Shown piece after piece: positions 3,540-56,740 of a stretch of 64,000 nucleotides of DNA. Under the pieces are notes generated by a model. That model did not search any database and had not been told where the DNA came from. It saw only the letters and a program-made list of their open reading frames with translations. Both the position numbers and the translations under genes were made by a program. Every line of letters starts with the position of its first letter. Positions within the stretch are counted from its first letter, which is position 1. Source of the DNA: an uncultured beta proteobacterium (GTDB lineage: Bacteria; Pseudomonadota; Gammaproteobacteria; Burkholderiales; JACQAP01); assembly GCA_963789945.1 (NCBI GenBank), contig CAWBMN010000007.1, forward strand, positions 27,178 through 91,177, given 5' to 3'.

Positions 3540-3636
3540 GGGATTGGGGACTGAGGATCGGGGACTGAGGTTTGGGAATTGAAGATTGGGCCAGGGCTCT
3601 AGAGCTCCTGGATCTCAATCCCCAATCCTCAATCCC
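3540..3636. repeat. IR1: heptad-periodic inverted repeat between ppiB and lpxH
   Basis: Left arm has 7 tandem heptamers: GGATTGG GGACTGA GGATCGG GGACTGA GGTTTGG GAATTGA AGATTGG. Right arm is TCAATCC CCAATCC TCAATCC, the complement of GGATTGR. The centre CCAGGGCTCTAGAGCTCCTGG is itself palindromic. Confidence 0.7.
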
Positions 3637-3639
3637 GTT

Positions 3640-4137
3640 TCAAACGACTTCCGCTTTTCTGATGACGACGTCTTCTTTCGGAACGTCCTGGTGCATTCCG
3701 TGGCTTCCCGTGGCCACACACTTGATCTTGTCGACCACTTCGCGGCCCTCGACCACGCGCCCGAACACGCAGTAGCCGTAAGCATCCGTAGTGGCGGTGC
3801 GGAAATTCAGGAAATCGTTTTTGGCGACGTTGATGAAGAATTGTGCGGTAGCCGTGTGCGGATTGGGAGTGCGTGCCATGGCGACAGTGTAAGCCTCGTT
3901 CTTGAGCCCGTTCTCGGCCTCGTTCCTGATCGGCGCCCGCGTGGATTTCTCCTTCATGCCGGGTTCGAAACCGCCGCCCTGGACCATGAAGCCGTTGATC
4001 ACGCGATGGAACACGGTGTTGTCGTAAAAACCATCCTTGACGTACTGCAGGAAGTTGTCCACGCTTCCGGGCGCCTTGGCGGCATCGAGCTCGAGGACGA
4101 TGTCGCCCAGCGAAGTTTGCAGTTTCACGCGGCTCAC
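3640..4137 (-). CDS. ppiB: peptidyl-prolyl cis-trans isomerase B (cytoplasmic cyclophilin)
   Basis: 165 aa with cyclophilin motifs [15 protein letters not shown] and [16 protein letters not shown]. No signal peptide. The GTG start overlaps the ppiA stop (GTGA). Confidence 0.9.
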
Positions 4138-4706
4138 TTTGCCTCCACCAGTCTGGCGTCCTGGATTACCACTTCCTGCCGCGGCACATCCTGCGGAAAA
4201 GGGCCGCCCGCTCCGGTCGCAAGCCGGGCGATCCTGTCGACCACGTCCATTCCCTTCACCACTTTGCCGAAAACCGTGTAGCCGTACCCGCGCGCAGTCG
4301 GAGCGGAGTGGTTCAGGAACGCATTGTCGGCGACGTTGATGAAAAACTGCGCGGTCGCGGAGTGTGGATTTGCCGTTCGCGCCATCGCGATGGCCCCGAT
4401 GTCGTTTTTCAGCCCGTTGGCTGCTTCATTCTGGATTGGATCGCGGGTGGGCTTCTGGGTGAAGTCCTGCGAGAAACCGCCACCCTGGATCATGAATCCG
4501 GGGATGACGCGATGGAATATCGTGCCCTTGTAGAAATCGCTTTTCACGTACTCGAGAAAATTCTTCACCGTCTGCGGCGCCTTGTCCGGATAGAGCTCGA
4601 TGCTGATGCTGCCGAGATTGGTTTTCAGTTCCACCTGCGGATTGGCGGCGATGGCCACGGTGCTGCTCAACAAAAGAGCGCAGAGCGCGCCCAATATCTT
4701 CTTCAT
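4134..4706 (-). CDS. ppiA: peptidyl-prolyl cis-trans isomerase A (periplasmic cyclophilin)
   Basis: Start taken at ATG 4706 ([20 protein letters not shown], a signal peptide). Cyclophilin core [15 protein letters not shown]. Confidence 0.9.
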
Positions 4707-4770
4707 CTCATGTCCTTCGAAGCTGGTTTGAAATTGCTCGGCCCGCGAACCTCGGCCCTCGTACCTGTTC

Positions 4771-6003
4771 TTATGCCGCCCCTTCATAGACGATCAGCCA
4801 CTTGCCGCCTTCCTTGATCCAGTACTGGCGTTTCTTCATGCGGTTGGAGAGGTTGCTGCTGCCGTAGTCCTGCTCGAAGGTGGTGACAGCAATTTGTTCC
4901 TTGCCCGGATAGAGCAACAGGGACACGTCGGACAACTGGACCCTGATCCAGGCCTTGGAAGCGTTCACCTGGCGTTTCTGCTCCGACCACTGCTCCAGAG
5001 TGATGCCGTTGGAGGAGAATTGCCGGGCGTAATGCCGCAGGTACGTTTCGGTATCGCGGCTTTCCCAGTCGCGCCGCCAGCGCTCGATCGCGGTCAACAG
5101 ATCGGTTCGCAAAGCTTCGACCTCACCGGGACTGGCCCAGTCGAGCGTATCGGCGATCACCACCGGCGTGGACCCGATTTGCAGTTTGCGGGCGAGGGCT
5201 TCCAGATCGGCGTTGGCAAGAACGATGCAGCCGTCGCTGGCGCGAGGCGGCCGGCTGTAGGTGTCGCGCGGGGTTCCGTGCAGCCAGATTCCGTAGCCGT
5301 CACGACCGCGAACGCGGTCCCACTCGTTCGGATAGTTGATGGGGAATGCGCCGCTGCCGTAGAAATCGGTGAGTTTTTCCCTGGGCAACTGGCTGACCAC
5401 ATGGTAAACGCCGATTGGCGTGCGCTTGTCGCCTTCGCGCAGTTTTTCCAGCCCGTTCTTGCCGATGGTCACGTAATAGTCGGCCACGTAACGTGCCGCG
5501 CCGCCGGCATTCTCGAACACGAACAGGGTCGATTTGGCCGAGTCGAGGACCAGTGCGTACTTCTGTTCTTGCGGCATTTGCAGCAGGTATCGCGGCGCAA
5601 GCTCGCCCGGATTCTCGATCTGATAGCGCATCAGGCGTGCACGCGCCTCCTCTCGCAAACCGTTCACCTGCTCGGACGGGCCGCCCGAAGCGTTGCCGAT
5701 GCTGTTGATCGGGCGGGAACGCGCGAGCAGCAGGTCTCCTCTCACCAGCTGCGCCAGGCGGAAATTAGGGTTCGACGCCAGCAGATTGTCGATCTGTTCG
5801 AGTGCGGAGGAGAATCGCCTCTCACCTATGTCCAGCATCGCCCGCACCAGCATCGCCTCGGGTGCAGCGAGCTGGCGTGCGACGACCGACGGCGGGCCCA
5901 GCCCCATCGCCCAGGCATACGATGCACCGGCCGTGGCGATTACCACCAGCGCCTGCACCAGTGTCTGCCTCGAACCCGCCTGATGTCGGCGTGACGGGGA
6001 CAT
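4771..6003 (-). CDS. L,D-transpeptidase (YkuD-type) with a C-terminal NTF2-like domain
   Basis: 410 aa with an N-terminal signal/anchor. Catalytic region GIWLHGTP...RASDGCIVL (His/Cys motif). The start overlaps the stop of the upstream TPR gene by 1 nt. Confidence 0.85.
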
Positions 6004-6977
6004 CAGTTCATTCTTTCCTGAAAGATCAACCAGCGGTCATTGTTTTTCGTGAGAACCAGCGTCTTGGCGCCGGAAGTGCTCAGAGTGTCGGACTTGTAAC
6101 CCTGACGAAAGCTCACGATGGCCTGGCCATTCGCATCAAAGGAAACCTTGGGCGAGCCTACCGTGACCTCGATCGATATCGGTTTGGTGATGCGATCGCG
6201 CCGCATGGCCTCCCAAGCCGCGCGCGGTTCGCCGCCCGGTACCTGGAAACCGGGCGCGTAGTGGGCGAGGTAGGCATCCGCATCCTTCGCCGACCAGGCT
6301 TTGGCCCAGCCATTCACGGCAGCGAGCACGGCCTCGGTTTCCGCCTTGCCCGGTGCAGGCGACTTCGGCGACGGCTGTTTCTTGTCCTTTGCGTCGGATA
6401 TCACGGCGGGGGCAACCGCGGATTCGGTTGCAACCACCGGCGACTTGCCCTTGCCCGGCACCACGCTGCTCGAGAACAGGTCCTTTATCATCGCCAGCTT
6501 GGTTTGCGCGGCGGCATTGCCGCGGTCGAGTTGCAGCGCCTTATCGTAGGCTTCACTCGCCATCTTGGCGTACACGTCGCCGAGATTCTCGTGCGCGATG
6601 GCGTAGCTCGGATGCGTGCGGATCGCCATTTCCAGCGACTTGCGCGCCTTGTCGTACTGCCCCTGCGAGGCATACAGGACGGCAAGATTGTTATAGGGTT
6701 CGGGCAATTCCGGATAGTCGTCGGTCAGGGCCGTGAATACCTTGATCGCGTCGTTCGGTTTGTTCTGCTCGGTGAGGATCAATCCTTTGAGGAAGCGTGC
6801 GCGCGCGTCGCGCGGATTCACGGTGATCGCGCCCTCGATTTTTTCCAGCGCGGCCGTATGGTTGCCCTGCTTGAATAAACGGCTGGCGTCGTCGTAGTTG
6901 TCGGCGGCCGCCGGTGCGCACTGCAATGCAAGTGCGAGCAGTGCGGCACCCAGCGCTGGGGATTGCAATCGGCTCAT
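6003..6977 (-). CDS. secreted TPR-repeat protein with the same C-terminal domain as the adjacent L,D-transpeptidase
   Basis: Signal peptide MSRLQSPALGAALLALALQCAPAAA, then TPR repeats (AIKVFTALTDDYPE..., NLAVLYASQGQYDKA...). C-terminal region W..AW..KD.DAYL.HYA. Confidence 0.8.
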   Translation of the reverse strand: MSRLQSPALGAALLALALQCAPAAADNYDDASRLFKQGNHTAALEKIEGAITVNPRDARARFLKGLILTEQNKPNDAIKVFTALTDDYPELPEPYNNLAVLYASQGQYDKARKSLEMAIRTHPSYAIAHENLGDVYAKMASEAYDKALQLDRGNAAAQTKLAMIKDLFSSSVVPGKGKSPVVATESAVAPAVISDAKDKKQPSPKSPAPGKAETEAVLAAVNGWAKAWSAKDADAYLAHYAPGFQVPGGEPRAAWEAMRRDRITKPISIEVTVGSPKVSFDANGQAIVSFRQGYKSDTLSTSGAKTLVLTKNNDRWLIFQERMN

Positions 6978-7126
6978 GTGCTAAACTTTACCTCAATAAG
7001 AAACGGTAGGTTATTGTAAATAATAGTAGATTCTATCAGTAGGGCGCCCCGTTCGACAATCCGACTGCGCCCGGGGCCTGCTGGCCCGTTTGGCGGCACC
7101 ATGCACCCGACCCGGAATGAATCCCG

Positions 7127-8494
7127 ATGCTGAAGATTTATAACTCGCTCACCCGCGCCAAGGAGACTTTTACCCCGATTTCCCCCGGAAAGGTGGGAAT
7201 GTACGTGTGCGGGATGACGGTCTACGACTACTGCCACCTTGGCCACGCGCGCTTCATGGCGGTGTTCGATCTGGTCAAGCGCTGGCTGGTCGCGAGCGGC
7301 TTCGAAACTACGTATGTGCGCAACATTACCGACATCGACGACAAGATCATCAAGCGTGCCGCCGAGAACAACGAACCCATCGAGAAATTGACCACCCGTT
7401 TCATCGAAGCGATGAACCAGGACGCGGCTGCGCTCGGCGTGCAGAAGCCCGATGTCGAACCGCGCGCAACCGCCAATGTTCCGGAGATGGTGCGGCTTAT
7501 CGCCGCGCTGATCGACAGGACCCTGGCCTACCAGGCGCCGAACGGCGACGTTTATTACTCGGTGCACAGATTCCCCGGCTACGGCAAGTTATCCGGCAAG
7601 ACGCTGGACGAACTGCGTGCCGGCGAGCGCGTGGAAGTCGATGGCAGCAAGCGTGATCCGCTCGACTTCGTGCTGTGGAAATCGGCGAAGCCGGGCGAGC
7701 CGGCCTGGGATTCGCCCTGGGGCAAGGGGCGGCCCGGATGGCACATCGAGTGCTCGGCGATGAGCGAACGCTACCTCGGCAGCCACTTCGACATCCACGG
7801 CGGCGGCCAGGACTTGCAGTTTCCGCACCACGAGAACGAGATCGCCCAGTCGGAGGGCGCGCACGGGCACACGTTCGTGAACTACTGGATGCACAACGGA
7901 TTCGTGCGCGTGGACAACGAGAAGATGTCGAAGTCGCTCGGCAATTTCTTCACCGTGCGCGAAATCCTGGCGAAGTACGACGCAGAAGTGGTGCGCTTTT
8001 TCATCGTGCGCGCGCACTATCGCAGCCCGCTTAACTACTCCGACCAGCACCTGGATGACGCGAGGGGAGCTCTGACCAGGCTATATACAGCGCTCAAAAG
8101 CGTGCCCGCGAGAGCGGCGAACATCGACTGGAACAATCCCCAAGCCGCGCGATTTCGCGAAGCGATGAACGACGACTTCAATAGCCCGGAAGCGGTTGCG
8201 GTGCTGTTCGACCTTGCCAACGAAGTCAATCGCAGCCAGTCCTCGAGCGCGGCCGCGCTGCTCAAGTCGCTTGGCGCAGTGCTTGGCCTGCTGCAACGCA
8301 ATCCGGAAGAATTTCTGCGCGGCGATCTGCCCGACGGCTGGACCGTGGCACGGATCGAAGAAATGATCGCGGCGCGTGCGCGAGCAAAGCAGGCCAGGAA
8401 TTTCGCCGAGTCCGACCGCATCCGCGACGAACTGCTCGCAGCCGGGATCGTGCTCGAAGACGGGCCCGCGGGCACGACCTGGCGCCGCAAGTAA
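7127..8494 (+). CDS. cysS: cysteine--tRNA ligase
   Basis: 455 aa. HIGH motif (CHLGHAR), KMSKS motif (KMSKSLGN) and a zinc-site region with WHIECS. Confidence 0.97.
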
Positions 8495-8512
8495 CGCGGC
8501 GTCGCGAGCATG

Positions 8513-8540
8513 AACAAGGGCCGCATCAGCGGCCCTTGTT
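8513..8540. terminator. bidirectional hairpin terminator between convergent cysS and dnaJ
   Basis: AACAAGGGCCG - catcag - CGGCCCTTGTT, a perfect 11-bp stem. Confidence 0.65.
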
Positions 8541-8555
8541 ATCGAGTCGCGACAC

Positions 8556-9679
8556 CTATTCGGCGAAGAATTCCTTCACGCGATCCATCCAGCTTTTCGC
8601 GCGCGGGTTGTGGCGGCCGCTGTCGCGCTCGTTGATCTCCTCCAACTCCTGCAGCAATTCCTTCTGCCGCGGCGTGAGGTTCACCGGCGTCTCCACCACC
8701 ACGTGGCATAGCAAGTCGCCGAAAGCGTTGCTGCGAACGCCCTTGATACCCTTGGCGCGCAAACGGAATACTTTTCCGGTCTGGGTCTCCGGTGGAATTT
8801 TGATCTTGGCGTAACCGTCCAGCGTGGGAATCTCGATCTCTCCTCCCAGTGTCGCCCTGGTGATGCTGATCGGCATCTCGCAGTGCAGATCATTGCCTTC
8901 ACGGCTGAACACCTCGTGCTGACGGATATGGATGACCACATAGAGATCTCCCGCCGGACCGCCGTTGACCCCGGCCTCGCCTTCACCCGAAAGGCGGATA
9001 CGGTCGCCCTCGTCCACACCCGCGGGGATCTTGACCGACAGCGTCTTCTGCCGCTTGACCCGGCCCGCGCCGTTGCACGTAGCGCAGGGACTTTGCACGA
9101 CTTTGCCGCTGCCATGGCATTTCGGGCAGGTCTGCTGAATCGAGAAGAAGCCCTGCGTCATGCGCACCTGGCCCTGGCCGCCGCAGGTCGGACAAGTCAT
9201 CGGCTGGGTGCCGGGTTTGGCGCCTGAGCCACCGCAAGTCGCGCACTCATCCATGGTCGGGATTCGCACCCGGGTTTCAGTGCCGCGTGCCGCTTCTTCC
9301 AGCGAGATTTCCAGGTTGTAGCGCAGGTCGGCGCCGCGGTAGACATTGGAGCGCTGGCGCCCCGCACCAAAGATATCGCCGAAAATATCGCCGAAGGCGT
9401 CGGCGAAAGTGCCGAAGCCCGCACCGGCCGCCCCGCCCCCATTCCCGAATGCGGATCGACCCCGGCGTGGCCGTACTGATCGTAGGCGCCGCGCTTGCCG
9501 GCGTCGGAGAGCACTTCGTAGGCTTCCTTCGCCTCCTTGAACAGCCCCTCGGACTTCGGGTTGTCCGGATTACGGTCCGGATGGTGCTTCATCGCCAGCT
9601 TCCGGTAGGCCTTCTTGATGTCCTCTTCGGAAGCGTCGCGATTGACGCCGAGCACCTCGTAGTAGTCGCGTTTCGACAT
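8556..9679 (-). pseudogene. dnaJ: chaperone DnaJ; reading frame broken by an apparent 1-nt deletion in the G/F region (sequencing error not excluded)
   Basis: J-domain (YYEVLGV...HPDRN) in frame A (9679 down to about 9440). The G/F region ([24 protein letters not shown]), zinc finger ([32 protein letters not shown]) and C-terminal domain are in frame B, contiguous with ORF 8556..9269. The frames switch at the C4GC5 tract 9431-9440. Confidence 0.85.
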
Positions 9680-9730
9680 TCAGTTCCTTGTTGGCAGGGT
9701 CGTCGCTTTATTTTTTTCCAGACGACGCAA

Positions 9731-9778
9731 GGGGTGAGCCGGAAATCCGCCTCACCCCTCACGCCTTACGCCTTACCT
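9731..9778. repeat. IR2: hairpin plus heptad tract between dnaK and dnaJ
   Basis: GGGGTGAG - 12-nt loop - CTCACCCC (perfect 8-bp stem), followed by CCTCACC CCTCACG CCTTACG CCTTACC. In the dnaK sense this reads GGTAAGG CGTAAGG CGTGAGG GGTGAGG ... CTCACCCC. Confidence 0.55.
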
Positions 9779-9780
9779 TA

Positions 9781-11715
<1,935 letters not shown>

Positions 11716-11757
11716 GGTCGTTCCTTTGTTCGAAAGTGAAAATGCCTTTGATTACCA

Positions 11758-11786
11758 AGATTTGGTCTTGTGTCCTGAAAATCAAG
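11758..11786 (-). promoter_or_regulatory. possible sigma-32 (heat-shock) promoter of dnaK
   Basis: Minus-strand CTTGAT (11786-11781), 15-nt spacer, CCAAATCT (11765-11758), compared with consensus CTTGAA-N13-17-CCCCATNT. The -35 overlaps the grpE stop. Confidence 0.35.
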
Positions 11787-12351: not shown

Positions 12352-12380
12352 CAGCCCCTCCTGAATCCAAGTTTCCAAGA

Positions 12381-13160: not shown

Positions 13161-13164
13161 TACG

Positions 13165-14268: not shown

Positions 14269-14269
14269 A

Positions 14270-14380
14270 GGGTTGAGGGGTGCGGGGGCGAGGGGTGAGG
14301 GGTGAGGCGAGAGGCGTCAGGTTGCGCGAGTACCGCGCGTAATGCCCCAAAGTTTTAGCTCGGGCATCCTGCCTCTACCA
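14270..14380. repeat. IR3: G-rich heptad tract (G-quadruplex motif on the + strand) with a weak complementary arm, between hrcA and hemH
   Basis: GGTTGAG GGGTGCG GGGGCGA GGGGTGA GGGGTGA GGCGAGA GGCGTCA (14271-14319). G-runs at 14277-80, 14284-88, 14292-95 and 14299-302. Partial partner CATCCTGCCTCTACC at 14365-14379. Confidence 0.6.
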
Positions 14381-14383
14381 AAT

Positions 14384-16401: not shown

Positions 16402-16427
16402 TCATCGCCGCCGGTTTTTCAGCAGCC

Positions 16428-27004: not shown

Positions 27005-27018
27005 GCGCGCTCACAATG

Positions 27019-27050
27019 AAAGCGGGAGGGGCGTGTGCCTCTCCCGCTTT
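27019..27050 (+). promoter_or_regulatory. strong leader hairpin at the 5' end of the carA transcript
   Basis: AAGCGGGAGGGG - cgtgtg - CCTCTCCCGCTT is a 12-bp stem including one G:T, followed only by TTTCC. It starts about 10 nt after the predicted TSS. Confidence 0.4.
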
Positions 27051-28237: not shown

Positions 28238-28427
28238 TTTCACCACAGAGATTCACTTCTATACCCCCTTGAGGGGTACACCGAGACACAGAGGAAACCT
28301 GGAGAGACAAATTAGAGCCGTGAGAAATGAAGAAATCGAGATCGGGAAACGCGCGCATTTGCAGGTGTCTTGTTTTCCGATTCTTACGATTTTCTCCGTA
28401 CCTCTGTGTCTCTGTGGTTGATTCACA
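28238..28427. repeat. IR4: about 190-nt long imperfect palindrome (CACAGAG family) filling the carA-carB spacer
   Basis: Outer arms CACCACAGAGATTCAC / ACACCGAGACACAGAGG (left) pair with CCTCTGTGTCTCTGTGGTTGATTCAC (right). Inner arms GAGAAATGAAGAAATCGAGATCGGGAAAC pair with GTTTTCCGATTCTTACGATTTTCTC. It ends 1 nt before the carB ATG. Confidence 0.7.
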
Positions 28428-32199: not shown

Positions 32200-32335
32200 T
32201 TCACCATAGAGACACCGAGGCACAGAGAATTACGCATGAACAGACTAAACCGGATCAAACACTACCGATTCCAGACCTTTGAGAGTCATTCAGTATTCCG
32301 GTCTTCTCTGTGCTTCGGTGTCTCTGTGGTTAGTC
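32200..32335. repeat. IR5: CACAGAG-family inverted repeat in the greA 3' region
   Basis: ACCATAGAGACACCGAGGCACAGAGAA (32203-32229) pairs with TTCTCTGTGCTTCGGTGTCTCTGTGGT (32304-32330). This gives 27 bp: 25 Watson-Crick plus 2 G:T. Spacer 74 nt. Confidence 0.85.
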
Positions 32336-35361: not shown

Positions 35362-35507
35362 CCGTGAGGGGTCAGGAGAGAGGGGTGAGGGGTCGAATCC
35401 TCACCCTTTTCGTTTCTTGAATTCGCGGTTGAACGTTGAGAATCTTCGCAACTTGGCCAGCGGGAACGTGATGGCACATCCTCACTCCTCACCCCTCACC
35501 CCTCGCG
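35362..35507. repeat. IR6: GGGGTGA-type inverted repeat spanning the ftsH-folP junction
   Basis: 5' arm CGTGAGGGGTCAGGAGAGAGGGGTGAGGGG (35363-35392). 3' arm CCTCACTCCTCACCCCTCACCCCTCGCG (35480-35507), which lies inside the first codons of folP. Confidence 0.65.
35382..35415 (+). terminator. intrinsic terminator-like hairpin after ftsH, formed from part of the IR6 5' arm
   Basis: GGGTGAGG (35383-35390) - ggtcgaat - CCTCACCC (35399-35406), followed by TTTTCGTTTCTT. Confidence 0.55.
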
Positions 35508-36346
35508 CCGTTCTGCAGCTTGGCCGCTTCTCGCTGAGGCTGGAGCACCCGCTGATCATGGGGGTGGTGAACGTCACGCCGGATTCGTTTTCCGATGGTG
35601 GTCGTTTCTTCGGTACGCAGCAGGCACTGGAACACGCGCGGGTCCTGATCGAGGAAGGCGCCGACATTCTCGACATCGGCGGGGAGTCCTCGCGGCCGGG
35701 TGCGGAGCCGGTGGGCCTCGACGAGGAATTGCGGCGGGTGATGCCGGTGCTGGAACAACTCGCGCCAGGTCCGGTACCGGTATCGGTCGACACCTGCAAG
35801 CCGGAGGTAATGCGCCACGCGATAGCGGCCGGGGCGGCGATGGTGAACGATATCAACGCGTTGCGCGAACCGGGGGCGCTCGAGGCGGTGGCGCAAAGTC
35901 AGGCTGCGGTGTGCCTGATGCACATGCAGGGTGAGCCGCGCTCGATGCAGCGCGACCCGAAATATGAAGACGTGGTGGCAGAGGTTACGATGTTTCTCGC
36001 GCAACGCGTTGACGCTGCGCAGCAGGCGGGTATTGCACGCGAGCGCATCGTCATCGACCCCGGCTTCGGCTTCGGCAAGAATACCGCTCACAACCTCGGA
36101 CTGCTGAGGGGCCTGCACAAAATTGCCGGTCTCGGACAGCCGGTGCTGGTCGGACTGTCGCGCAAATCGCTATTCGGTAAAATCACCGGCAAACCGGTAG
36201 CGGACCGTGTTTCCGCGAGCGTGGCCGCGGCGCTGCTTGCGGTCGAGCGCGGCGCCGCACTGGTTCGCGTGCACGACGTGGCGGCGACCCGCGATGCGCT
36301 GCTGGTGCTCAACGCAATCGAAGGACATTCCCTTGCCAAAAGCTAG
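35471..36346 (+). CDS. folP: dihydropteroate synthase
   Basis: [27 protein letters not shown] and ALVRVHDV. The start is ambiguous (ATG 35471, or TTG 35417 in the ORF track). Confidence 0.9.
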
Positions 36347-42983: not shown

Positions 42984-42985
42984 CG

Positions 42986-43072
42986 GTGCTGAGTGCCCGG
43001 TACTGTGTGCTGCGAACAAATGGCATCAGGCCCGGGACTTCAGCACACAGCACTCAGTACTCAGTACTGAGT
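42986..43072. repeat. IR7: heptad-periodic inverted repeat between secG and tRNA-Leu
   Basis: Left arm GCTGAGT GCCCGGT ACTGTGT GCTG. Right arm CAGCACA CAGCACT CAGTACT CAGTACT GAGT. The inner 12 bp pair with one mismatch. Confidence 0.65.
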
Positions 43073-43076
43073 TTGC

Positions 43077-44169: not shown

Positions 44170-44180
44170 CCCCTCCGGCC

Positions 44181-44780: not shown

Positions 44781-44834
44781 AGGTAATGACTCAGCACAAT
44801 TTTCCCATGAATTTTAGCTCCGGCCGCCCTGCGG

Positions 44835-44859
44835 GCTTAACTTGCCAGGGCAAGTTAGC
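44835..44859 (+). other. hairpin inside the unusually long nuoC-nuoD spacer
   Basis: TAACTTGCC (44838-44846) - ag - GGCAAGTTA (44849-44857), extendable to GC...GC with one bulge. Confidence 0.5.
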
Positions 44860-44932
44860 CTGCACTGAAGTTCATCGTGTAACGCCGATGGTCTTCGATT
44901 TCCCGCTCATGGTGTCACTACCAATTTGAGCT

Positions 44933-47972: not shown

Positions 47973-47985
47973 GGCCAGACTACTG

Positions 47986-50370
47986 ATGGCGCACCTCGAA
48001 GTAGACGGCCGGCCGGTCGAAGTACCGGACAACAGCACCATAATGGACGCCGCCAACAAGCTCGGCATCTACGTTCCGCATTTCTGCTATCACAGGAAGC
48101 TGTCGATCGCCGCCAACTGCCGCATGTGCCTGGTGCAGGTGGAAAAGGCGCCGAAACCGTTGCCCGCCTGCGCCACCCCGGCCACCGAGGGAATGAAGGT
48201 CCAGACCCACTCGGAGGCCGCGATCAAGGCGCAGAAGGGCGTGATGGAATTCCTGCTCATCAACCATCCGCTCGACTGCCCGATCTGCGACCAGGGCGGC
48301 GAGTGCCAGTTGCAGGACCTCGCGGTCGGCTACGGCTCATCGAGTTCCCGCTACACGGAACCGAAGCGGGTGGTCACGAACAAGAATCTCGGGCCGCTGG
48401 TCTGCGCCGACGAGATGACCCGCTGCATTCACTGCACCCGCTGTGTGCGTTTCGGTCAGGAGATCGCCGGCATCATGGAACTCGGCCTGGTCGGCCGCGG
48501 CGAGCACGCCGAGATCATGCCGTTCGTGGCGCGCACCGTGGATTCGGAACTGTCGGGGAACATGATCGACGTTTGCCCGGTGGGCGCGCTCACCTCCAAA
48601 CCATTCCGCTACAAGGCGCGCACCTGGGAGCTGGCGCGGCGCAAGGCCATCAGCCCGCACGACGGACTCGGTTCCAATCTGGTGGTCCAGGTGAAGGACA
48701 ACCGCGTCATGCGCGTCCTGCCGCTCGAGAACGAAGCCGTCAACGAGTGCTGGATCTCCGACCGCGACCGGTTTTCCTACGAGGCCCTCAACTCGCAAGA
48801 GAGGCTGACCACGCCGATGATCAAGCGCGACGGCAACTGGGAGGAGGCAGACTGGACCACCGCGCTCGAGTTCGTCGCTGCGGGGCTCAGGCGCATCCGC
48901 GATGCGCATGGCGGCAACGCGGTCGGCGCGCTCGGGTCGCCACAGGCGACCGTGGAAGAGCTGTTTCTGCTCGGCAAGCTTGCGCGCGGCATCGGTAGCG
49001 GCAACGTCGATTTCCGCCTGCGGCAATCGGACTTTTCCGGGGACGGGAGCCTGTGCGGGGCGCCCTCGCTGGGAATGAAGGTCGCCGCGATCAATGGTCT
49101 GGACCGGGTGTTGGTGGTGGGCTCGACCTTGCGCAAGGAGCACCCGCTGCTGGCGCAGCGATTCCGGCAGGCGGTAAAAAAAGGGGCGCAGTTCAACCTG
49201 ATCAATCCGGTGGACGACGATCTGCTGATGCGCGTGGACAACAGGACGATCGTCGCCCCGAGCGCGATGGCCGAGGCGCTCGGCCAGGTGCTGAAAGCTG
49301 CCGCCGAGGAGAAGTCAATGGCCGTGCCGGCGGGCGTGGCTGGTCTCGCGGTGCGCGATTCCGCCCGCGCCATCGCGCAAAGTCTGGTTTCGGGCGCGAA
49401 TCGCGCGATATTTCTCGGTAACATTGCGCAGCATCATCCGCAGGCCAGCCAGTTGCATCGCCTGGCGCAGGAACTGTCGAAAATCGCAGGCGCGAACTTC
49501 GGTTTTCTCGGCGAGGCGGCAAACAGCGTCGGCGGTTACCTCGCGGGCGCGCTGCCGTTCGGGCGCGAGCCCCCGGGCCTCAACGCCGCGCAGATGCTTA
49601 TCCAGCCGCGCCGGGCTTACCTGCTGCTGAATGCGGAAGTCGAACTGGATACCTTCGACCCGCGTACCGCGCGCGCAGCAATGCACGCCGCCGAACTGGT
49701 GGTGGTCATGTCCCCGTACATGCAACGCGCCGCCGATTACGCGCAGGTGTTGCTTCCGGTGTCGCCGTTCACCGAGACCGCCGGGACCTACGTCAACACC
49801 GAGGGCATGGTGCAGAGCTTTCAGGGTGCGGTGCGGCCGCTGGGCGAAACGCGCCCGGCGTGGAAAGTTTTACGTGTGCTCGGTACGCTTCTCGACCTTC
49901 CGGGTTTCGATTTCGACAACATCGAGCAGGTGCGCGGCGAGTGGAAAAATTCAGTGGGCGAGGTTGCGTCCAGGCTGTCGAACGAAATTGGCGGTGTACC
50001 CGCGGTGATCGCTCCGGCGCGGCCGGAGGGCGTTGAGGGGGCCGCATTCGAGAGAATCGGCGAAGTGCCGATCTACCATGCGGACGCGATCGTGCGGCGC
50101 GCGGAATCTCTGCAGCAAACCCGGGACGCGCAAGTTGGGACGGCCTGGCTGCCGGGAAGCCTGATTGAAAAACTTGGTTTACGCCAGGGCGACCGCCTCA
50201 GGATCTTGCAGGAGGGCGGTGAAGCCATGTTGCCCTTCGATCGCGATGATCGCCTGCCCGCGGAGTGCGTGCGCCTGCCCTCGGGCTGCCGCGAGACGGC
50301 AGGTCTGGGCGCAATGTTCGGCCTGGTGAAACTGGAACGTGTGGCCGCACAACAGAAGGTGACGGCATGA
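47986..50370 (+). CDS. nuoG: NADH-quinone oxidoreductase subunit G
   Basis: 794 aa with an N-terminal 2Fe-2S ([15 protein letters not shown]), 4Fe-4S motifs ([20 protein letters not shown]) and a molybdopterin-like domain. Confidence 0.96.
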
Positions 50371-51425
50371 GTTTGGTATTCCTCGAGGATCTCATCGGAC
50401 CGGGCGGGGTTATTGCGCTCTGGACGCTGGCGAAGATTCTCGCCATCGTCATCCCGGTCATCCTGAGCGTCGCCTACCTCACGCTGGCGGAGCGCAAGGT
50501 CATCGGCTACATGCAGATCCGCATCGGCCCGAATCGCGTCGGCTACAAGGGCCTGCTGCAGCCGTTCGCTGATGTGCTCAAGCTGCTGGTCAAGGAAGTC
50601 ATCGTGCCCTCCGGCGCGAACAAGTTCCTGTTCATTCTGGCCCCCGTGCTCGCCATCATGCCGGCACTGGCGGCCTGGGCAGTGGTGCCGTTTTCACCGG
50701 AGCTGGTGCTGGCGGACGTCAACGCGGGGCTGCTGTACGTGATGGCGATTACCTCGATGGGCGTGTACGGCGTGATCATCGCCGGCTGGGCGTCGAATTC
50801 CAAGTACGCCTTCCTCGGCGCCATGCGCTCCGCGGCGCAGATCGTCTCCTACGAGATCGCGATGGGATTTGCCCTGGTGAGCGTGCTGATGATGTCGGGC
50901 AGCTTGAATCTGTCCACCATCGTCAACGAACAGAACTCCGGGTGGGGGCTGCTGGGATGGAACCTGATTCCGCTGTTGCCGATGTTCATGGTGTATTTCA
51001 TTTCCGGCGTGGCGGAGACCAACCGCGCGCCTTTCGACGTCGCTGAAGGCGAATCGGAAATAGTGGCCGGTTTCCACGTCGAATACTCGGGCACAGCCTT
51101 CGCCGTGTTCTTCCTGGCTGAATACGCGAACATGATCCTGGTCTCCGCGCTGGCCTCGGTCATGTTCCTCGGCGGCTGGCTGTCCCCGGTACCAAGCCTG
51201 TTTGCGGACTTGGTAAGAGCTCCCTGGCTTGCTGCGGATGGCTTTCCCTGGCTGGCGCTCAAAGTGGCCTTCCTGCTGTTCTGTTTCCTGTGGTTCCGCG
51301 CCACCTTTCCGCGCTACCGCTACGACCAGATCATGCGGCTGGGCTGGAAGGTTTTCATCCCGTTGACGATAGTCTGGCTGGTCCTGGTCGGCGGACTGAT
51401 GCAGACACAGTTCTGGCCATGGTAG
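50367..51425 (+). CDS. nuoH: NADH-quinone oxidoreductase subunit H
   Basis: Start at ATG 50367 (ATGA overlap with nuoG), 352 aa. [20 protein letters not shown] and [14 protein letters not shown]. Confidence 0.95.
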
Positions 51426-51435
51426 GGACGGAAGA

Positions 51436-51927
51436 ATGATCGAGCGCATTCGCGACTTTTTCCGCACCTTTCTGCTCTTCGAGCTTGTGAAGGGCCTGAT
51501 GCTCACCGGCCGCTACTTCTTCGCGCGCAAGATCACGGTGCAGTTTCCGGAGGAAAAGACGCCCCAGTCGGGGCGCTTCCGCGGCCTGCATGCGCTGCGC
51601 CGCTATCCCAACGGCGAGGAACGCTGCATTGCCTGCAAGCTGTGTGAAGCGGTATGCCCGGCGCTGGCAATCACCATCGAATCCGAGCAGCGTGCCGACG
51701 GTACCCGCCGCACCACGCGCTACGACATCGACCTCACCAAGTGCATTTTCTGCGGATTCTGCGAGGAGTCCTGTCCGGTGGACTCGATCGTCGAGACCCG
51801 CATCCTCGAATACCACGGGGAAAAGCGCGGAGACCTGCTGTACACCAAGGAGATGCTGCTGGCGATCGGCGACCGCTACGAAGACCAGATCGCCAGGGAC
51901 CGCGCCGAGGATGCAGCGTACCGATGA
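51436..51927 (+). CDS. nuoI: NADH-quinone oxidoreductase subunit I
   Basis: 163 aa with two 4Fe-4S motifs, [12 protein letters not shown] and [12 protein letters not shown]. Confidence 0.95.
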
Positions 51928-51935
51928 GGCGAGAA

Positions 51936-51987
51936 GCGTGAGGGGTGAGGAGTGAGGGGAAGACCCCTTACTCCTCAATCCTTACCA
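51936..51987. repeat. IR9: tight GTGAGGR-type hairpin between nuoI and nuoJ
   Basis: GAGGAGTGAGGGG (51947-51959) - AAGA - CCCCTTACTCCTC (51964-51976) gives 13 bp: 12 Watson-Crick plus 1 G:T. Flanked by further units (GCGTGAGGGGT... / ...AATCCTTACC). Confidence 0.8.
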
Positions 51988-51995
51988 ACAAGAAC

Positions 51996-52766
51996 ATGGA
52001 TTTCAAGACCGGCGTCTTTTATTTCTTCGCGGCCATGCTGGTGTTCGCCGCGCTGCGCGTCATTACCGCGCGCAATCCGGTGCATTCTGCCCTTTTCCTG
52101 GTGCTGGCGTTCTTTACCGCCGCGGCGCTGTGGGTGCTGCTCGAGGCCGAGTTTCTCGCCATCGCGCTGGTGCTGGTCTACGTCGGTGCGGTGATGGTGC
52201 TGTTCCTGTTCGTGGTGATGATGCTCGACATCAACCTCGACCGATTGCGCGAGGGCTACTGGGACTACCTGGTGCCGGCGCTGATCGTGGCGGGCGTGAT
52301 GGTGGCGGAAATGGCGATCATCCTCGGCGCCCGCTACTTTGACCTCGAGGGCATGCCGGCGCCCGAGCCCAGGGGCGGGGACTACAGCAACACACGCGAG
52401 CTCGGCCTCCTGATCTATACCGACTACGTCTATCCGTTCGAGATCGCCGCGGTGATCCTGCTGGTGGCGATCGTCGCCGCCATCGCCCTGACGCTGCGCC
52501 ATCGCAAGGACACCAAGTACATCGACGCTGCGAAGCAGATCAACATCCACCGCAAGGACCGCGTGCGGTTGGTGTCGATGCCGTCGGAAAGCAAGGATGA
52601 AGGCAGGATGAAGGATGAAGGCGGAAGAAAAATTCAAACGTGGGGAAGCGCGGTAGTGCACGCGGAAAGCCAGGCATCGGATTGTTCCGGCCTCTGTGGT
52701 TCGGCGTTTCACTTCATCCTTCATCCTTCATCCTTCATCCTTTCGACGCCCGGAGGGCGGCGATGA
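51996..52766 (+). CDS. nuoJ: NADH-quinone oxidoreductase subunit J, carrying an about 57-codon C-terminal extension that reads through repeat IR10
   Basis: Start at ATG 51996 ([15 protein letters not shown]...). Conserved core to about ...[11 protein letters not shown]. The frame then stays open through IR10 to TGA 52764-52766, which overlaps the nuoK ATG (ATGA). Confidence 0.85.
52593..52742. repeat. IR10: GGATGAA-type inverted repeat inside the 3' end of the nuoJ ORF
   Basis: Left arm AAGGATGAAGGCAGGATGAAGGATGAAGGCGG. Right arm CACTTCATCCTTCATCCTTCATCCTTCATCCTT. The 85-nt spacer contains a solo CTCTGTGGTT (52692-52701) of the IR4/IR5 family. Confidence 0.8.
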
Positions 52767-53068
52767 TCTCCCTCTCCCACTACCTCATTCTTGGCGCCGT
52801 GCTGTTCGCGATCAGCGTGGTGGGCATCTTTTTGAACCGCAAGAACGTGATCATCCTGCTGATGGCGATCGAGCTGATGCTGCTGGCGGTGAACATGAAT
52901 TTCGTCGCCTTTTCGCATTTCCTGCAGGACAGCGCCGGTCAGGTATTCGTGTTTTTCATCCTCACCGTGGCGGCGGCCGAGTCGGCAATCGGTCTGGCGA
53001 TCCTGGTGGTGCTGTTCCGCAATGTTCGCACCATCAACGTCGACGATCTGGACAAGTTGAAAGGATGA
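52763..53068 (+). CDS. nuoK: NADH-quinone oxidoreductase subunit K
   Basis: Start at ATG 52763 with GGAGGG 6 nt upstream. 101 aa, 3 [14 protein letters not shown]...[14 protein letters not shown]. Confidence 0.93.
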
Positions 53069-53071
53069 AAA

Positions 53072-53155
53072 GCGTGAGGAGAGAGGAGTTAGCGGTGAGG
53101 AAAGCAAAACCTGGGGTGAGTTTGCCCCTCACCCCTCACTCCTTACCCCTTACGC
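53072..53155. repeat. IR11: GTGAGGA/GGGGTGA-type inverted repeat between nuoK and nuoL
   Basis: GCGTGAGGAGAGAGGAGTTAGCGGTGAGG ... GGGGTGAG-tttgccc-CTCACCCC TCACTCCTTACCCCTTACGC. The inner 8-bp stem is perfect; the outer arms are imperfect. Confidence 0.65.
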
Positions 53156-53165
53156 ACTTGGATCC

Positions 53166-55127
53166 ATGAAAAGCCTCTACCTCATCGTCCCTCTCGCCCC
53201 GCTTGCCGGCGCGCTGATTGCCGGCCTGCTGGGCTGGCTGATCGGCCGTCGTGCCACGCACTGGGTGGCGATCACCGGCATGACGGTGTCAACCATCGCA
53301 GCCTTTCTGGTGTTTCGCGACGTGCTCGCCGGCAACACGTTCGACGAACCGATCTATACCTGGATCACCACCGGTGACATTTCGCTGGAAATCGGATTCC
53401 TGATCGACCGATTGTCGGCCACCATGATGCTGGTCGTAACTTTCGTCTCGCTGATGGTGCACATCTACACCATTGGCTACATGGCGGACGATCCCGGCTA
53501 CCAGCGCTTCTTTTCCTACATTTCCCTCTTCACCTTCTCGATGCTTATGCTGGTGATGAGCAACAATTTCCTGCAGCTGTTCTTCGGCTGGGAAGCGGTG
53601 GGCCTGGTTTCCTATCTGCTGATCGGCTTCTGGTACGCGCGCCCGAGCGCGATCTATGCCAGCCTCAAGGCCTTCCTGGTCAATCGCGTCGGAGATTTGG
53701 GTTTTCTGCTTGGGATCGCACTGATTTTCGTGTTCTGCGGTTCGCTGGAATACGCGCAGGTTTTCTCCCGCGCGCCGGAGCTGACCGGCGAGACGGTGGA
53801 AATGGCCTACGTCGGCTGGCCGCTGCTTACCACCATCTGCATCCTGCTGTTCATCGGCGCGATGGGAAAATCGGCGCAGTTTCCGCTGCACGTCTGGCTG
53901 CCGGACTCGATGGAGGGCCCGACGCCGATCTCGGCACTGATTCATGCCGCCACCATGGTAACCGCGGGCATTTTCATGGTGGCGCGCATGTCGCCGCTGT
54001 TCGAGTTGTCGGAAACGGCGCTGTCGTTCGTGATGGTGATCGGCGCAATCACCGCATTGTTCATGGCGCTGGTGGCAGTGGTGCAGAACGATATCAAGCG
54101 GGTGGTGGCCTATTCGACGCTGTCGCAACTCGGTTACATGACCGTGGCGCTCGGCGCCTCGGCCTACGCCGGGGCCATATTTCACCTGGTCACCCACGCC
54201 TTTTTCAAGGCGCTGTTGTTCCTCGGCGCCGGCTCGGTGATCATCGCCCTGCACCACGAGCAGGACATGCGCAGGATGGGCGGTTTGAGGAAGTACATGC
54301 CGATCACCTACGCCACCATGCTCATCGGTGCTGTGGCAAGCGCGGGCATTCCCGGTTTCTCCGGTTTCTTTTCCAAGGACGCGATCATCGAGGCCGTGCA
54401 TCTGTCGCAATTGCCGGGCAGCGGTTTTGCCCACTTCTGTGTGCTGTCATGCGTGTTCGTCACAGCGTTCTATACCTTCCGGCTGTTTTTCATGACTTTC
54501 CACGGCAAGGAGCGTTTCGAAGTTCACGCTGGCGATCACGGACACGCGCAGGGCCACGTACCCCACGAGTCCCCCTGGGTGGTCACCGTGCCGCTGGTGG
54601 TCCTGGCGGTGCCGACGATCTGTGCCGGGTGGGTGATCGGGACGGTGCTGTTCGGCGGCTTCTTCGGCGATGCCATCGTGGTTGCCAGATCACACGACGT
54701 GCTCGCGCAGCTGGGCGGGGATTTTCACGGCGTGATGGCGATGATGGCGCACGCGCTGGCCACCTGGCCGTTGTGGCTTGCGGTTGCCGGCATTGCCGGC
54801 GCGGCCTGGTTGTATCTCAGGCCCACCGACCTGCCGGACAAGTTTCGGCAGTGGTTCTCGCCGCTCTATACGCTTCTCGAGCAGAAGTACTATTTCGACC
54901 GTTTCAACGACTGGTTCTTTGCAGGCGGTGCGCGCCTGGTCGGGCGCGGGTTGTGGAAAGGCGGCGATGTCGCTGTGATCGACGGCTTCGTCAACGGTGC
55001 CGCAACGCTGGTCGGCTGGCTGGCGACTGTCGTGCGCAAACTCCAATCCGGATATGTCTATACCTACGCCTTCGCCATGATCATTGGCATGGTGACCCTG
55101 CTTACGCTCTGGTTTGCCCGAAGCTGA
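53166..55127 (+). CDS. nuoL: NADH-quinone oxidoreductase subunit L
   Basis: 653 aa polytopic antiporter-like subunit. WEAVGLVSYLLIGFW...GKSAQFPLHVWLPDSMEGPTP. Confidence 0.96.
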   Translation: MKSLYLIVPLAPLAGALIAGLLGWLIGRRATHWVAITGMTVSTIAAFLVFRDVLAGNTFDEPIYTWITTGDISLEIGFLIDRLSATMMLVVTFVSLMVHIYTIGYMADDPGYQRFFSYISLFTFSMLMLVMSNNFLQLFFGWEAVGLVSYLLIGFWYARPSAIYASLKAFLVNRVGDLGFLLGIALIFVFCGSLEYAQVFSRAPELTGETVEMAYVGWPLLTTICILLFIGAMGKSAQFPLHVWLPDSMEGPTPISALIHAATMVTAGIFMVARMSPLFELSETALSFVMVIGAITALFMALVAVVQNDIKRVVAYSTLSQLGYMTVALGASAYAGAIFHLVTHAFFKALLFLGAGSVIIALHHEQDMRRMGGLRKYMPITYATMLIGAVASAGIPGFSGFFSKDAIIEAVHLSQLPGSGFAHFCVLSCVFVTAFYTFRLFFMTFHGKERFEVHAGDHGHAQGHVPHESPWVVTVPLVVLAVPTICAGWVIGTVLFGGFFGDAIVVARSHDVLAQLGGDFHGVMAMMAHALATWPLWLAVAGIAGAAWLYLRPTDLPDKFRQWFSPLYTLLEQKYYFDRFNDWFFAGGARLVGRGLWKGGDVAVIDGFVNGAATLVGWLATVVRKLQSGYVYTYAFAMIIGMVTLLTLWFARS

Positions 55128-55142
55128 GGACGGGAAGACATC

Positions 55143-56624
55143 ATGTTCGGACTGCCCTACCTGAGCACCGTCATTTGGCTGCCGATCCTTGCCGGCATAG
55201 CGGTGCTTTTCACCGGCTCGGACCGCCATGCCAACGCCGCCCGCTGGCTGGCGCTCGCCGGCGCCGTTGGCGGCCTCGTGGTTGCGCTGCCGCTCTACTC
55301 CGGATTCGACCCCGGCACACCGGGGATGCAGTTCGTGGAGTTGATGCCCTGGATCGAGTCCTACAGTGTCAACTATCACCTCGGTATCGACGGTGTTTCG
55401 CTCCTGATGATCCTGCTCAACTGTTTCACCACCGTGCTGGTGGTGCTGGCGGGATGGCAGGTGGTGCAGAGCCGGGTGGCCCAGTACATGGCAGCCTTCC
55501 TGATCCTTTCCGGGATCATGAACGGTGTGTTCTGCGCGCAGGATGCCGCGCTGTTCTATGTCTTTTTCGAGGCGACGCTGATCCCGATGTTCATCGTCAT
55601 CGGCGTATGGGGAGGGCCGAACCGGGTTTATGCAGCGCTCAAGTTTTTCCTCTACACACTGGTCGGATCGCTGCTGACCCTGATTGCATTCATCTATCTG
55701 TACGTTGCCTCCGAGGGCAGTTTCGCACTGGCCGACTACTACCGCCTGCCGATTCCTCTGGGCACCCAGATCCTGTTGTTCATTGCCTTCTTTGCCGCGT
55801 TTGCGGTCAAGGTGCCGATGTTCCCGGTACATACGTGGTTGCCCGATGCGCATGTCGAGGCACCCACCGGCGGTTCCGTGGTGCTGGCAGCCGTGATGCT
55901 GAAGCTTGGTGCCTACGGTTTCATCCGGCTGTCGCTGCCGATTCTGCCGGATGCCAGCCACGTGGCTGCCCCGGTCGTCATCGGCTTGTCGCTGATCGCG
56001 GTGGTGTATATCGGAGTAGTGGCACTGGTGCAGACCGACATGAAGAAGCTGATCGCCTATTCCTCGATTTCGCACATGGGATTCGTGACGCTGGGCATTT
56101 TCCTGTTCAACGACCACGGCATGGAAGGGGCGGTAATCCAGATGGTCTCGCACGGCTTCGTTTCCGGCGCGCTTTTCCTGTGCGTCGGCGTCCTGTACGA
56201 CCGCATGCACTCGCGTTTGATCGCCGACTACGGCGGGGTGGTGAACCGGATGCCGGTATTTGCCGCCTTCTTCGTTCTGTTCGCGATGGCCAATTCCGGT
56301 TTGCCGGGCACCAGCGGATTTGTCGGCGAGTTCCTGGTGATTCTGGGGACGATGGAGGAGAACTTCTGGTACGCAGTCGCAGCGGCGAGCACGCTGCTGT
56401 TCGGCGCCGCCTATACACTGTGGATGATCAAGCGCGTCGTTTTCGGCCCGGTGGCCAACGGCAAGGTTGCAGCTTTGACAGACATCACGCTGCGCGAGCG
56501 CTTGGTGCTCGGCCTGGTCGCGATCGCGGTGCTGGCGATGGGGCTATATCCCCAGCCGTTCGCCGCGGTGCTGCATACCTCGGTCAACGAACTCCTGACG
56601 CTGGCAAACCAGAGCAAATTATGA
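55143..56624 (+). CDS. nuoM: NADH-quinone oxidoreductase subunit M
   Basis: 493 aa antiporter-like subunit. FAVKVPMFPVHTWLPDAHVEAPT. Confidence 0.96.
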   Translation: MFGLPYLSTVIWLPILAGIAVLFTGSDRHANAARWLALAGAVGGLVVALPLYSGFDPGTPGMQFVELMPWIESYSVNYHLGIDGVSLLMILLNCFTTVLVVLAGWQVVQSRVAQYMAAFLILSGIMNGVFCAQDAALFYVFFEATLIPMFIVIGVWGGPNRVYAALKFFLYTLVGSLLTLIAFIYLYVASEGSFALADYYRLPIPLGTQILLFIAFFAAFAVKVPMFPVHTWLPDAHVEAPTGGSVVLAAVMLKLGAYGFIRLSLPILPDASHVAAPVVIGLSLIAVVYIGVVALVQTDMKKLIAYSSISHMGFVTLGIFLFNDHGMEGAVIQMVSHGFVSGALFLCVGVLYDRMHSRLIADYGGVVNRMPVFAAFFVLFAMANSGLPGTSGFVGEFLVILGTMEENFWYAVAAASTLLFGAAYTLWMIKRVVFGPVANGKVAALTDITLRERLVLGLVAIAVLAMGLYPQPFAAVLHTSVNELLTLANQSKL

Positions 56625-56629
56625 AAACA

Positions 56630-56740
56630 GGGCCGAGGGACGAGGATCGAGGGACGAGGGAAATGCAAAATCGCGCCGTTGCGCTTAGTGCTTGTCCCTC
56701 GATCCTCGTCCCTCGGCCCTCACCCCTCGCCCCACGTCCC
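56630..56740. repeat. IR12: GAGGGAC-type inverted repeat with 26-bp perfect arms between nuoM and nuoN
   Basis: GGGCCGAGGGACGAGGATCGAGGGAC (56630-56655) is the exact reverse complement of 56694-56719. The 38-nt spacer is followed by more C-rich units (CTCACCCCTCGCCCCACGTCCC). Confidence 0.9.

Follow-up and report, generated by a model that had tools for sequence, protein, structure and literature searches.

Convergent pairs of 7- to 8-nucleotide tandem arrays form stem-loops with co-varying arms at gene boundaries of a betaproteobacterial genome

Convergent pairs of heptanucleotide arrays between genes are known from Xanthomonas. Rehm et al. (2015, PLoS One; PMC4692102) described, in Xanthomonas campestris and X. 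citri, heptamer arrays of the unit GGGAATC that are 89-93% intergenic and transcribed. Of these, 70-75 cases are array pairs that are convergent, with the purine-rich array first, and are potential stem-loops; array positions are conserved between Xanthomonas species and length and sequence vary. The G-rich array lies on the coding strand where it follows an open reading frame (ORF), and on the non-coding strand where it precedes one. More generally, Mrazek, Guo and Shah (2007, PNAS), as cited in PMC4692102 and PMC4679880, found heptanucleotide repeats to be over-represented among the longer simple sequence repeats (SSRs) of many bacterial genomes, Burkholderia included, and polymerase slippage on a contact of about 7 nt was proposed as the cause. 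Here, we analyse periodic inverted repeats, numbered IR1 to IR12, at gene junctions of a 64,000-nt stretch of an uncultured beta proteobacterium (contig CAWBMN010000007.1), hereafter the window.

We showed that these elements are slippage-prone arrays of 7-8 nt units that lie in convergent pairs at gene boundaries, form very stable stem-loops in the single strand and have arms that co-vary. Indeed, the copy number shifts by slippage, the unit turns over quickly, and both arms gain the complementary variant at one and the same position in every unit. The interpretation that we favour, and to which we give an even chance, is that they are heptanucleotide (at two loci octanucleotide) SSR arrays, of one kind with the Xanthomonas pairs and with the long heptanucleotide SSRs of many bacteria, and that their convergent pairs fold out of the mRNA, by which the translation of neighbouring genes would stay coupled.

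Periodic hairpins at the gene junctions of the window

The window was scanned for arrays of period 7 with at least three copies and at most two mismatches, 100 Markov-2 shuffles serving as the null. Ten arrays were found by Tandem Repeats Finder and by an independent autocorrelation scan, whereas the shuffles gave 0.35 on average and never more than 2. All ten sit at a junction that an earlier note on this DNA had named, at positions that include 3541-3636, 9750-9777, 14269-14316, 35364-35509, 43040-43073, 51936-51959, 52601-52744, 53125-53150 and 56629-56741. That note had counted twelve periodic inverted repeats at junctions and had proposed a comparison of fold energies with dinucleotide-shuffled controls. 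We made this comparison by RNA folding with 200 shuffles per element: 10 of the 11 located elements fold far better than their shuffles, with z-scores of -3.3 to -7.9. The description thus stands for ten elements, whereas IR3 is a single array and IR8, which is absent from the units listed in the note, could not be identified. The located elements are the following.

IR1, ppiB/lpxH, 3539..3637, minus strand: units GGATTGR/GGACTGA; 23-bp outer stem; z -7.2.
IR2, dnaK/dnaJ, 9724..9780, minus strand: outer stem of 15 bp, or 18 pairs when the 3-bp apical helix is counted; z -6.7.
IR3, hrcA/hemH, 14269..14316, minus strand: single heptamer array that is C-rich in the sense strand and runs up to the hemH ATG; z -1.15.
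IR4, carA/carB, 28238..28426, plus strand: 8-nt units of CACAGAGR type; z -4.0.
IR5, between convergent greA (plus) and yhbY (minus), 32203..32330, no single strand: 8-nt units of the CACAGAGR family, as in IR4; z -7.6.
IR6, ftsH/folP, 35363..35509, plus strand: GGGGTGA units; z -3.3.
IR7, secG/tRNA-Leu, 42984..43072, plus strand: CAGYACT units; ends 4 nt 5' of the tRNA; z -4.6.
IR9, nuoI/nuoJ, 51938..51985, plus strand: GTGAGGR units; 21-bp stem; z -7.0.
IR10, nuoJ/nuoK, 52593..52742, plus strand: GGATGAA and CTTCATC units; z -5.8.
IR11, nuoK/nuoL, 53075..53158, plus strand: GTGAGGR and CCCTCAC units; 33 predicted pairs in total; z -4.7.
IR12, nuoM/nuoN, 56629..56741, plus strand: GAGGGAC/GAGGATC units; 30-nt arms that are 97% complementary; z -7.9.

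In IR2, the purine-rich units GGTAAGG, CGTAAGG, CGTGAGG and GGTGAGG lie directly 3' of the dnaK stop and the sole complementary unit is CTCACCCC; this element does fold, but as a two-armed repeat it sets four purine-rich units against one. IR3 has no real partner arm. A two-armed candidate for an IR3 orthologue, at L168, was rejected, its flanking ORFs not fitting hemH. For IR5, the pair count given earlier was confirmed: the 27-bp arms make 25 Watson-Crick and 2 G:T pairs, the latter on the plus strand. IR7 is purine-neutral and its G-rich arm comes first, and the 3' end of IR12 bears additional unpaired units of CCCTCAC type.

No conserved coding core is interrupted by an element, as had been stated, although the nuoJ ORF spans IR10 and the folP ORF probably includes the 3' arm of IR6. 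As no further in-frame start codon occurs within 35471-35558, the probable folP start is ATG 35471, and translation would then take in the C-rich 3' arm of IR6 as an extension at the N terminus. The nuoJ ORF of this strain (51996-52766) reads across the whole of IR10 and gains ~57 residues, and its TGA overlaps the nuoK ATG (ATGA, 52763-52766); in the sibling contigs introduced below, nuoJ stops at a TGA within the first arm of the IR10 site and the called NuoJ has 201-224 residues. Next to IR2, dnaJ (8556-9679, minus strand) is split between two overlapping reading frames: the ORF 9197-9679 encodes the J domain, and a frame open over 8556-9569 the zinc finger and the C-terminal part. This suggests that the Gly/Phe-rich region contains a frameshift or a sequencing error.

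The window has a G+C content of ~62% and carries ppiB-lpxH, dnaK-dnaJ, hrcA, hemH, carAB, greA, yhbY, rlmE, ftsH-folP, secG-tRNA-Leu and the nuoA-N operon; the names under which the flanking genes had been listed (ppiB, lpxH, dnaK, dnaJ, hrcA, hemH, carA, greA and folP) are correct. With one genome taken per species, the nearest matches of its NuoK are unclassified betaproteobacterial metagenome-assembled genomes at 93% identity, and remoter ones come from Thiobacillus, Hydrogenophilaceae, Nitrosomonadaceae and Methylophilaceae genomes. A wider comparison set comprised 80 related nuo loci, counted as species, which together with the window amount to 1.41 Mb. Period 7 stands out over this sequence: of 37 such arrays, 16 have a reverse-complement partner no more than 200 nt away, against none of 50 at period 6 and 2 of 27 at period 5; at periods 8 and 9, partners were found for 2/3 and 3/6 arrays.

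Besides the listed elements, the nuoC/nuoD junction (44781-44930, 150 nt) was the sole other structured junction found (z -3.0), and it is without 7-nt periodicity. Ordinary non-periodic hairpins exist as well: a terminator-like stem at 8513-8541, between the convergent cysS and dnaJ (z -7.2), and a GC-rich stem of 14 bp, with TTTCC after it, at 27013-27045, upstream of carA (z -4.1), which is possibly a terminator or an attenuator. Hairpins in this genome do not, therefore, have periodic arms as a rule.

Unit turnover and co-variation of the arms

Sibling strains were represented by ten metagenome contigs that each encode an identical NuoK. Over most of the shared nuoH-nuoM segment they are 94-98% identical to the window, the exception being L008 with 88%. 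Siblings that are ~95% identical differ in copy number, in spacer and in unit at nuoJ/K and nuoK/L, and two unrelated types of spacer occur at nuoJ/K. Within one element, the arms can also have unequal copy numbers, such as 8.5 versus 4 units at nuoI/J of L017 and 4 versus 1 in IR2.

The arms change together. At nuoK/L, L004 has GTGACRR/GTCACxx in place of the GTGAGGR/CCCTCAC of the window: a GC pair has become CG at alignment columns 13, 20, 27 and 34 and at their partners 89, 82, 75 and 68, so that the switch hits the identical unit position in all four units of both arms. Across the nine variants of the nuoK/L alignment, 93% of the cells are paired and 10 pairs are changed on both sides, a result that none of 500 shuffles matches; sliding the partner column lowers the pairing to 39-59%.

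The claim of the note that the architecture is kept and the unit sequence is not was borne out at orthologous nuo junctions of other betaproteobacteria, which carry other units. In Hydrogenophilus, the nuoI/J and nuoK/L junctions have the periodic-arm hairpin architecture with ACGGGAA units, and two Thiobacillus have GGGGCTA/GGAATTA units at nuo junctions. Likewise, the units are GGGACTA, CACAGAGA and GAGTGTT at nuo junctions of L046, AGGGCGG in L066 and GTGAACG in L012. Occurrence is patchy, since in the majority of the 80 species these junctions are short and free of such elements; L012 itself has none at nuoJ/K.

The units are, on the other hand, less specific to their locus than had been claimed. 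Variants or rotations of GGGGTGA are found at 5-6 loci of the window (IR2, IR3, IR6, IR9, IR11 and, in its tail, IR12), and IR4 and IR5 have a 24-nt arm in common, CCACAGAGACACCGAGGCACAGAG. Moreover, the CACAGAGR 8-mer forms two hairpins in L046, another genome, and the GGATTGR arms at nuoJ/K of the siblings L002 and L007 are identical to the IR1 arms at 20 of 23 nt. Within its 64 kb, the window holds six or more unit types, among which GGATGAA, CAGYACT and CACAGAGR have no G-runs.

Some further features of these sequences were noted. The motif CTCTGTGGTT closes the 3' arms of IR4 (28405-28420) and IR5 (32317-32332), and is also present, as GCCTCTGTGGTTCGG, within the spacer of IR10 (52670-52705), a spacer found in only some of the siblings. 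The GTGAGGR arms of IR9 and IR11 resemble the Shine-Dalgarno (SD) consensus GGAGGTGA and their partner arms (TCACTCCTTA, CCTCAC) the 16S rRNA 3' end, so that these two stems pair an SD-like with an anti-SD-like sequence; the CACAGAGR and CAGYACT units show no such resemblance. At nuoI/J of L007, an extra insert of ~70 nt lies just 5' of the IR9-type hairpin, which bears several changes, and itself forms a second hairpin. In L011, a metagenome-assembled genome, the nuoI/J gap of 437 nt holds a hicA/hicB toxin-antitoxin pair (Pfam HicA_toxin 7.9e-18, HicB_lk_antitox 3.8e-11), and the nuoK/nuoL gap measures 807 nt.

Geometry, translational coupling and competing explanations

The elements share a layout in which the purine- or G-rich array begins at the upstream stop or shortly past it and the complementary C-rich array ends just 5' of the downstream start. 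The outer stem starts 0-10 nt past the upstream stop. At its other end, a distance of 3-27 nt to the start was measured, which shrinks to about 1-2 nt at lpxH when the start is re-placed to GTG 3540-3538, which falls in the last bases of the IR1 3' arm as delimited. For instance, the stem of IR1 begins 3 nt past the ppiB stop, that of IR9 lies 10 nt from the nuoI stop and 10 nt from the nuoJ start, and that of IR4 fills the entire gap between the carA stop and the carB start. A closed stem therefore leaves ~5-34 nt between stop and start, which is normal intercistronic spacing: the median gaps at nuoI/J, nuoK/L and nuoM/N are 21-39 nt among the 80 species.

We propose that the two arrays pair with each other in the mRNA of the operon, so that the insert of 50-190 nt folds out as one long stem-loop. 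At its base, the stop of the upstream gene and the start of the next would again lie as close together as is usual between cistrons. In tight operons such as nuo, carAB and ppiB-lpxH, translational coupling could then survive via re-initiation or via unmasking of the start by the terminating ribosome. An insert that did not fold would separate the two genes or bury the start site, and pairing would be kept for this reason; it may be upheld by selection, which would remove inserts that fail to fold, or in the DNA itself, through homogenisation of the arms templated by the hairpin. The elements would accordingly be tolerated self-folding repeats and not regulators, and any protection of the mRNA like that by repetitive extragenic palindromic (REP) sequences would be a by-product.

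This model is supported by the intergenic arrays with their strong stems, the partner frequency at period 7, the SSR-like variation between siblings, the concerted change of the arms, the flush position of the stems and the Xanthomonas precedent, and also by what follows. Between stem and start, no SD match was found for nuoJ, nuoL, nuoN, carB and hemH. Their SD scores are -0.7, -3.1, +0.4, -2.7 and +1.9 kcal/mol, respectively, and those of most other genes -5 to -11 kcal/mol. The sequences 3' of the stems have no T-runs. Intrinsic termination was considered and rejected: no terminator-like site of the sense strand coincides with any element, including IR7 and IR9-IR12, and the total of such sites in the window is not above that of shuffles. 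A search of the whole window against Rfam 15 gave no match at the gathering threshold.

Several observations weigh against the coupling model. The SD sites of nuoJ, nuoL and nuoN are weak also in relatives that have no element, so that the missing SD is not specific to the elements. Pairing is not always maintained, as illustrated by the one-armed arrays IR2, IR3 and L026; the arms are badly matched at nuoM/N of L012 and at nuoK/L of L006 and L008 (-35.5 versus about -50 kcal/mol), and 76 of 84 metagenome (GGGGTGA)3 arrays are partnerless. In addition, the concerted change of both arms could stem from templated repair between the arms in the DNA or from recombinational allele replacement, with no selection on the RNA. 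The coupling model, which is pure inference, accounts neither for the purine-first order of the arms nor for the preference for 7 nt.

The view of the earlier note was that selection acts on the RNA structure itself. With a function of their own comparable to that of REP and of bacterial interspersed mosaic elements (BIME), the hairpins would block 3'-5' exonucleases or direct processing, and so give the segments of operon mRNAs different stabilities. The structural intuition of the note proved partly right. Folding beyond the shuffles and co-variation between strains both speak for such a function. The recurrence of elements at identical nuo junctions in several lineages, with differing units, and their position within operons without U-tracts are equally in its favour. 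The two further arguments of the note, wobble and polarity, fail. It had reported an excess of mismatches that are permitted as G:U only in the sense strand, and in the window the sense strand does fold better in 9 of 10 elements; this advantage is gone in 32 related junction elements, in which the sense strand is better in 14/32 and G:U pairs number 104 in sense versus 96 in antisense. At nuoI/J of L046, four A.C mismatches lie on the sense strand, and IR5 has no single sense strand, greA and yhbY being convergent. The wobble pairs, although suggestive in the window, were consequently dropped as evidence that selection acts on the RNA. Patchy occurrence, junctions too short for any element in most of the 80 species, the missing nuoJ/K element of L012, one-armed arrays and often unequal arm copy numbers are difficult to reconcile with a function of the hairpins as such, and no conserved loop or sequence offers itself for recognition by a processing enzyme. 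We regard such a function as doubtful.

As for polarity, it had been emphasised that the purine-rich arm is 5' along transcription, on whichever strand the genes lie. This says nothing on transcription, because an inverted repeat reads alike on both strands: a purine arm followed by a pyrimidine arm has the same order in its reverse complement. The order itself is a strong rule, strand-symmetric and valid here, in metagenomes and in Xanthomonas. Periodic junction hairpins comprise 13 purine-first, no pyrimidine-first and 1 neutral case, and non-periodic ones 4, 0 and 6, giving 17:0 for purine-first over pyrimidine-first at junction hairpins overall. Among the 84 metagenome (GGGGTGA)3 arrays, the complement lies downstream in 8 and upstream in none, the remainder being solitary. 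A compound array on the reverse strand of L126 (~2249-2420) consists of (GGGGTGA)7, a spacer and (CTCCTCA)3, directly followed by (CTGTTCA)6-7 and (GGTGAAT)2; its small second part is the only pyrimidine-first periodic hairpin seen, and it adjoins a purine-first one.

The purine-first order would take on a meaning if the elements formed a distinct, widespread and self-renewing intercistronic class, in which the hairpin templates the homogenisation of its own arms and the stem acts as a bridge for re-initiation or shunting, carrying a ribosome that terminates at its 5' base over to the start codon at its 3' base. The polarity would then be a requirement at the RNA level: the C-rich arm might be hidden from Rho, stops in three frames might be provided after the upstream gene, or SD-like purines might be kept off the start. 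We hold this to be unlikely.

Alternatively, the elements may be small mobile elements, either REP-like with a REP-associated tyrosine transposase (RAYT) or of the miniature inverted-repeat transposable element (MITE) kind, in several sub-families, so that locus specificity would be an artefact of a 64-kb view. This would agree with the recurrence of units across loci and genomes (the GGGGTGA type at 5-6 loci; CACAGAGR at IR4, IR5 and two loci of L046), with the IR1-like GGATTGR arms of L002 and L007, with ACGGGAA at two junctions of L017 and with (GGGGTGA)n...(TCACCCC)n pairs in unrelated metagenome contigs. Spacers between like arms are, however, unrelated (IR4 versus IR5; nuoI/J versus nuoK/L of L017), and copy number varies between arms and strains. 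Orthologous elements keep their flanks and have interiors that diverged in place (window versus L012 at nuoM/N); by reading of the sequences, no GTAG-type REP head is present in the elements, and no transposase was detected among the ~28 window ORFs scanned. Mobility appears quite unlikely.

Neutral homogenisation of the DNA, by slippage and by intrastrand template switching (quasipalindrome correction), would require no selection on the fold. It sits well with the strand symmetry of both the mismatch pattern and the polarity, and the periodic change of L004, in all eight units together, looks homogenised and does not resemble eight independent substitutions. As a complete account we find it very unlikely, since it explains neither the flush position of the stem between stop and start nor the exclusive purine-first order (17:0 at junctions, 8:0 for metagenome arrays). 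Finally, G-quadruplexes on DNA or RNA, with the C-rich arm as competitor, have been proposed for Xanthomonas and Nostoc heptamers, and fit the GGGGTGA arrays with at least four G-runs in IR3 and in metagenomes, the GGGGTGA units of IR6 and the G-quadruplexes formed in vitro by GGGAATC and GGGGAYT oligonucleotides (PMC4692102); but as a general explanation they were rejected and are most improbable, since the GGATGAA, CAGYACT and CACAGAGR units and AGTGAAA of L016 have no G-runs and a 20-30 bp duplex should win wherever both arms exist.

The essential-operon junctions nuoI/J, J/K, K/L and M/N, which share an architecture across lineages with differing units, are an unusually clean system. Natural strain variants in which both arms have switched make it directly testable whether pairing is selected or mechanical, and the same system does so for the preservation of coupling by a long fold-out stem.

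Relation to described repeat families

REP/BIME elements of enterobacteria and pseudomonads are intergenic, often intercistronic, imperfect palindromes that form stem-loops in mRNA without U-tracts. Their copies have a conserved sequence and a link to RAYT, whereas the elements of the window have tandem-repeat arms, differing units and unrelated spacers. Within the 64 kb, sub-families share arms (the GGGGTGA type; IR4 and IR5) but not whole elements, and no RAYT gene (IS200/IS605-like Y1) was present among the ~28 window ORFs scanned. Nor is there the conserved interior of a MITE, the spacers between like arms being unrelated; target-site duplications were not systematically sought.

A functional lead comes from the split ribosome-binding site of T4 gene 38 and from the cauliflower mosaic virus shunt, where a stable hairpin folds out the RNA in between and an upstream signal or stop codon comes to lie beside a downstream start. 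It is a lead only: these are single, sequence-specific cases with experimental proof.

Tandem heptamers are found in other bacteria. The TAACTGA repeats of Beggiatoaceae are direct, with one inverted case among 170 sets (MacGregor 2015, PMC4679880), and Geobacter metallireducens has sets of GGACCGG and MTYCTGA (PMC2700814). These and the cyanobacterial short tandemly repeated repetitive (STRR) sequences share with the window tandem 7-nt units, mostly intergenic and in many copies; unlike in the window, the unit within one genome is a single sequence. The heptanucleotide SSRs of Mrazek (2007) are, as cited, direct repeats, with no inverted pairs or hairpins.

The earlier note knew of no described class with the properties of these elements. 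This was wrong, as the convergent heptamer arrays of Xanthomonas had already been published (PMC4692102). The elements of the window agree with these in having tandem 7-nt units in at least about three copies, apart from IR4 and IR5 with their 8-nt units. They are intergenic, near ORF ends, under the strand rule given above, with a stop-to-stem distance of 0-10 nt. They form convergent purine-first pairs (13:0:1 for periodic hairpins, 8:0 in metagenomes), and among relatives their position is kept while length and sequence vary. The single genome-wide unit with four G-runs has no equivalent in the window. Xanthomonas has one genome-wide unit with G-quadruplex potential, in contrast to the at least six unit types found here, several of them free of G-runs and one of 8 nt. 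The hosts also differ, the organism studied here being betaproteobacterium-like.

Altogether, four features are new here with respect to the parts of the heptamer-repeat literature cited. The concerted change of the arms between near-identical strains and the flush geometry between stop and start go beyond what PMC4692102 describes in those parts. The presence of several units side by side in a single genome, some of them without G-quadruplex potential, is without counterpart in the considered text of PMC4692102, PMC4679880 and PMC2700814. Lastly, elements at orthologous junctions of essential operons in several betaproteobacterial lineages add to the arrays reported there a setting in which position is shared and unit sequence is not.

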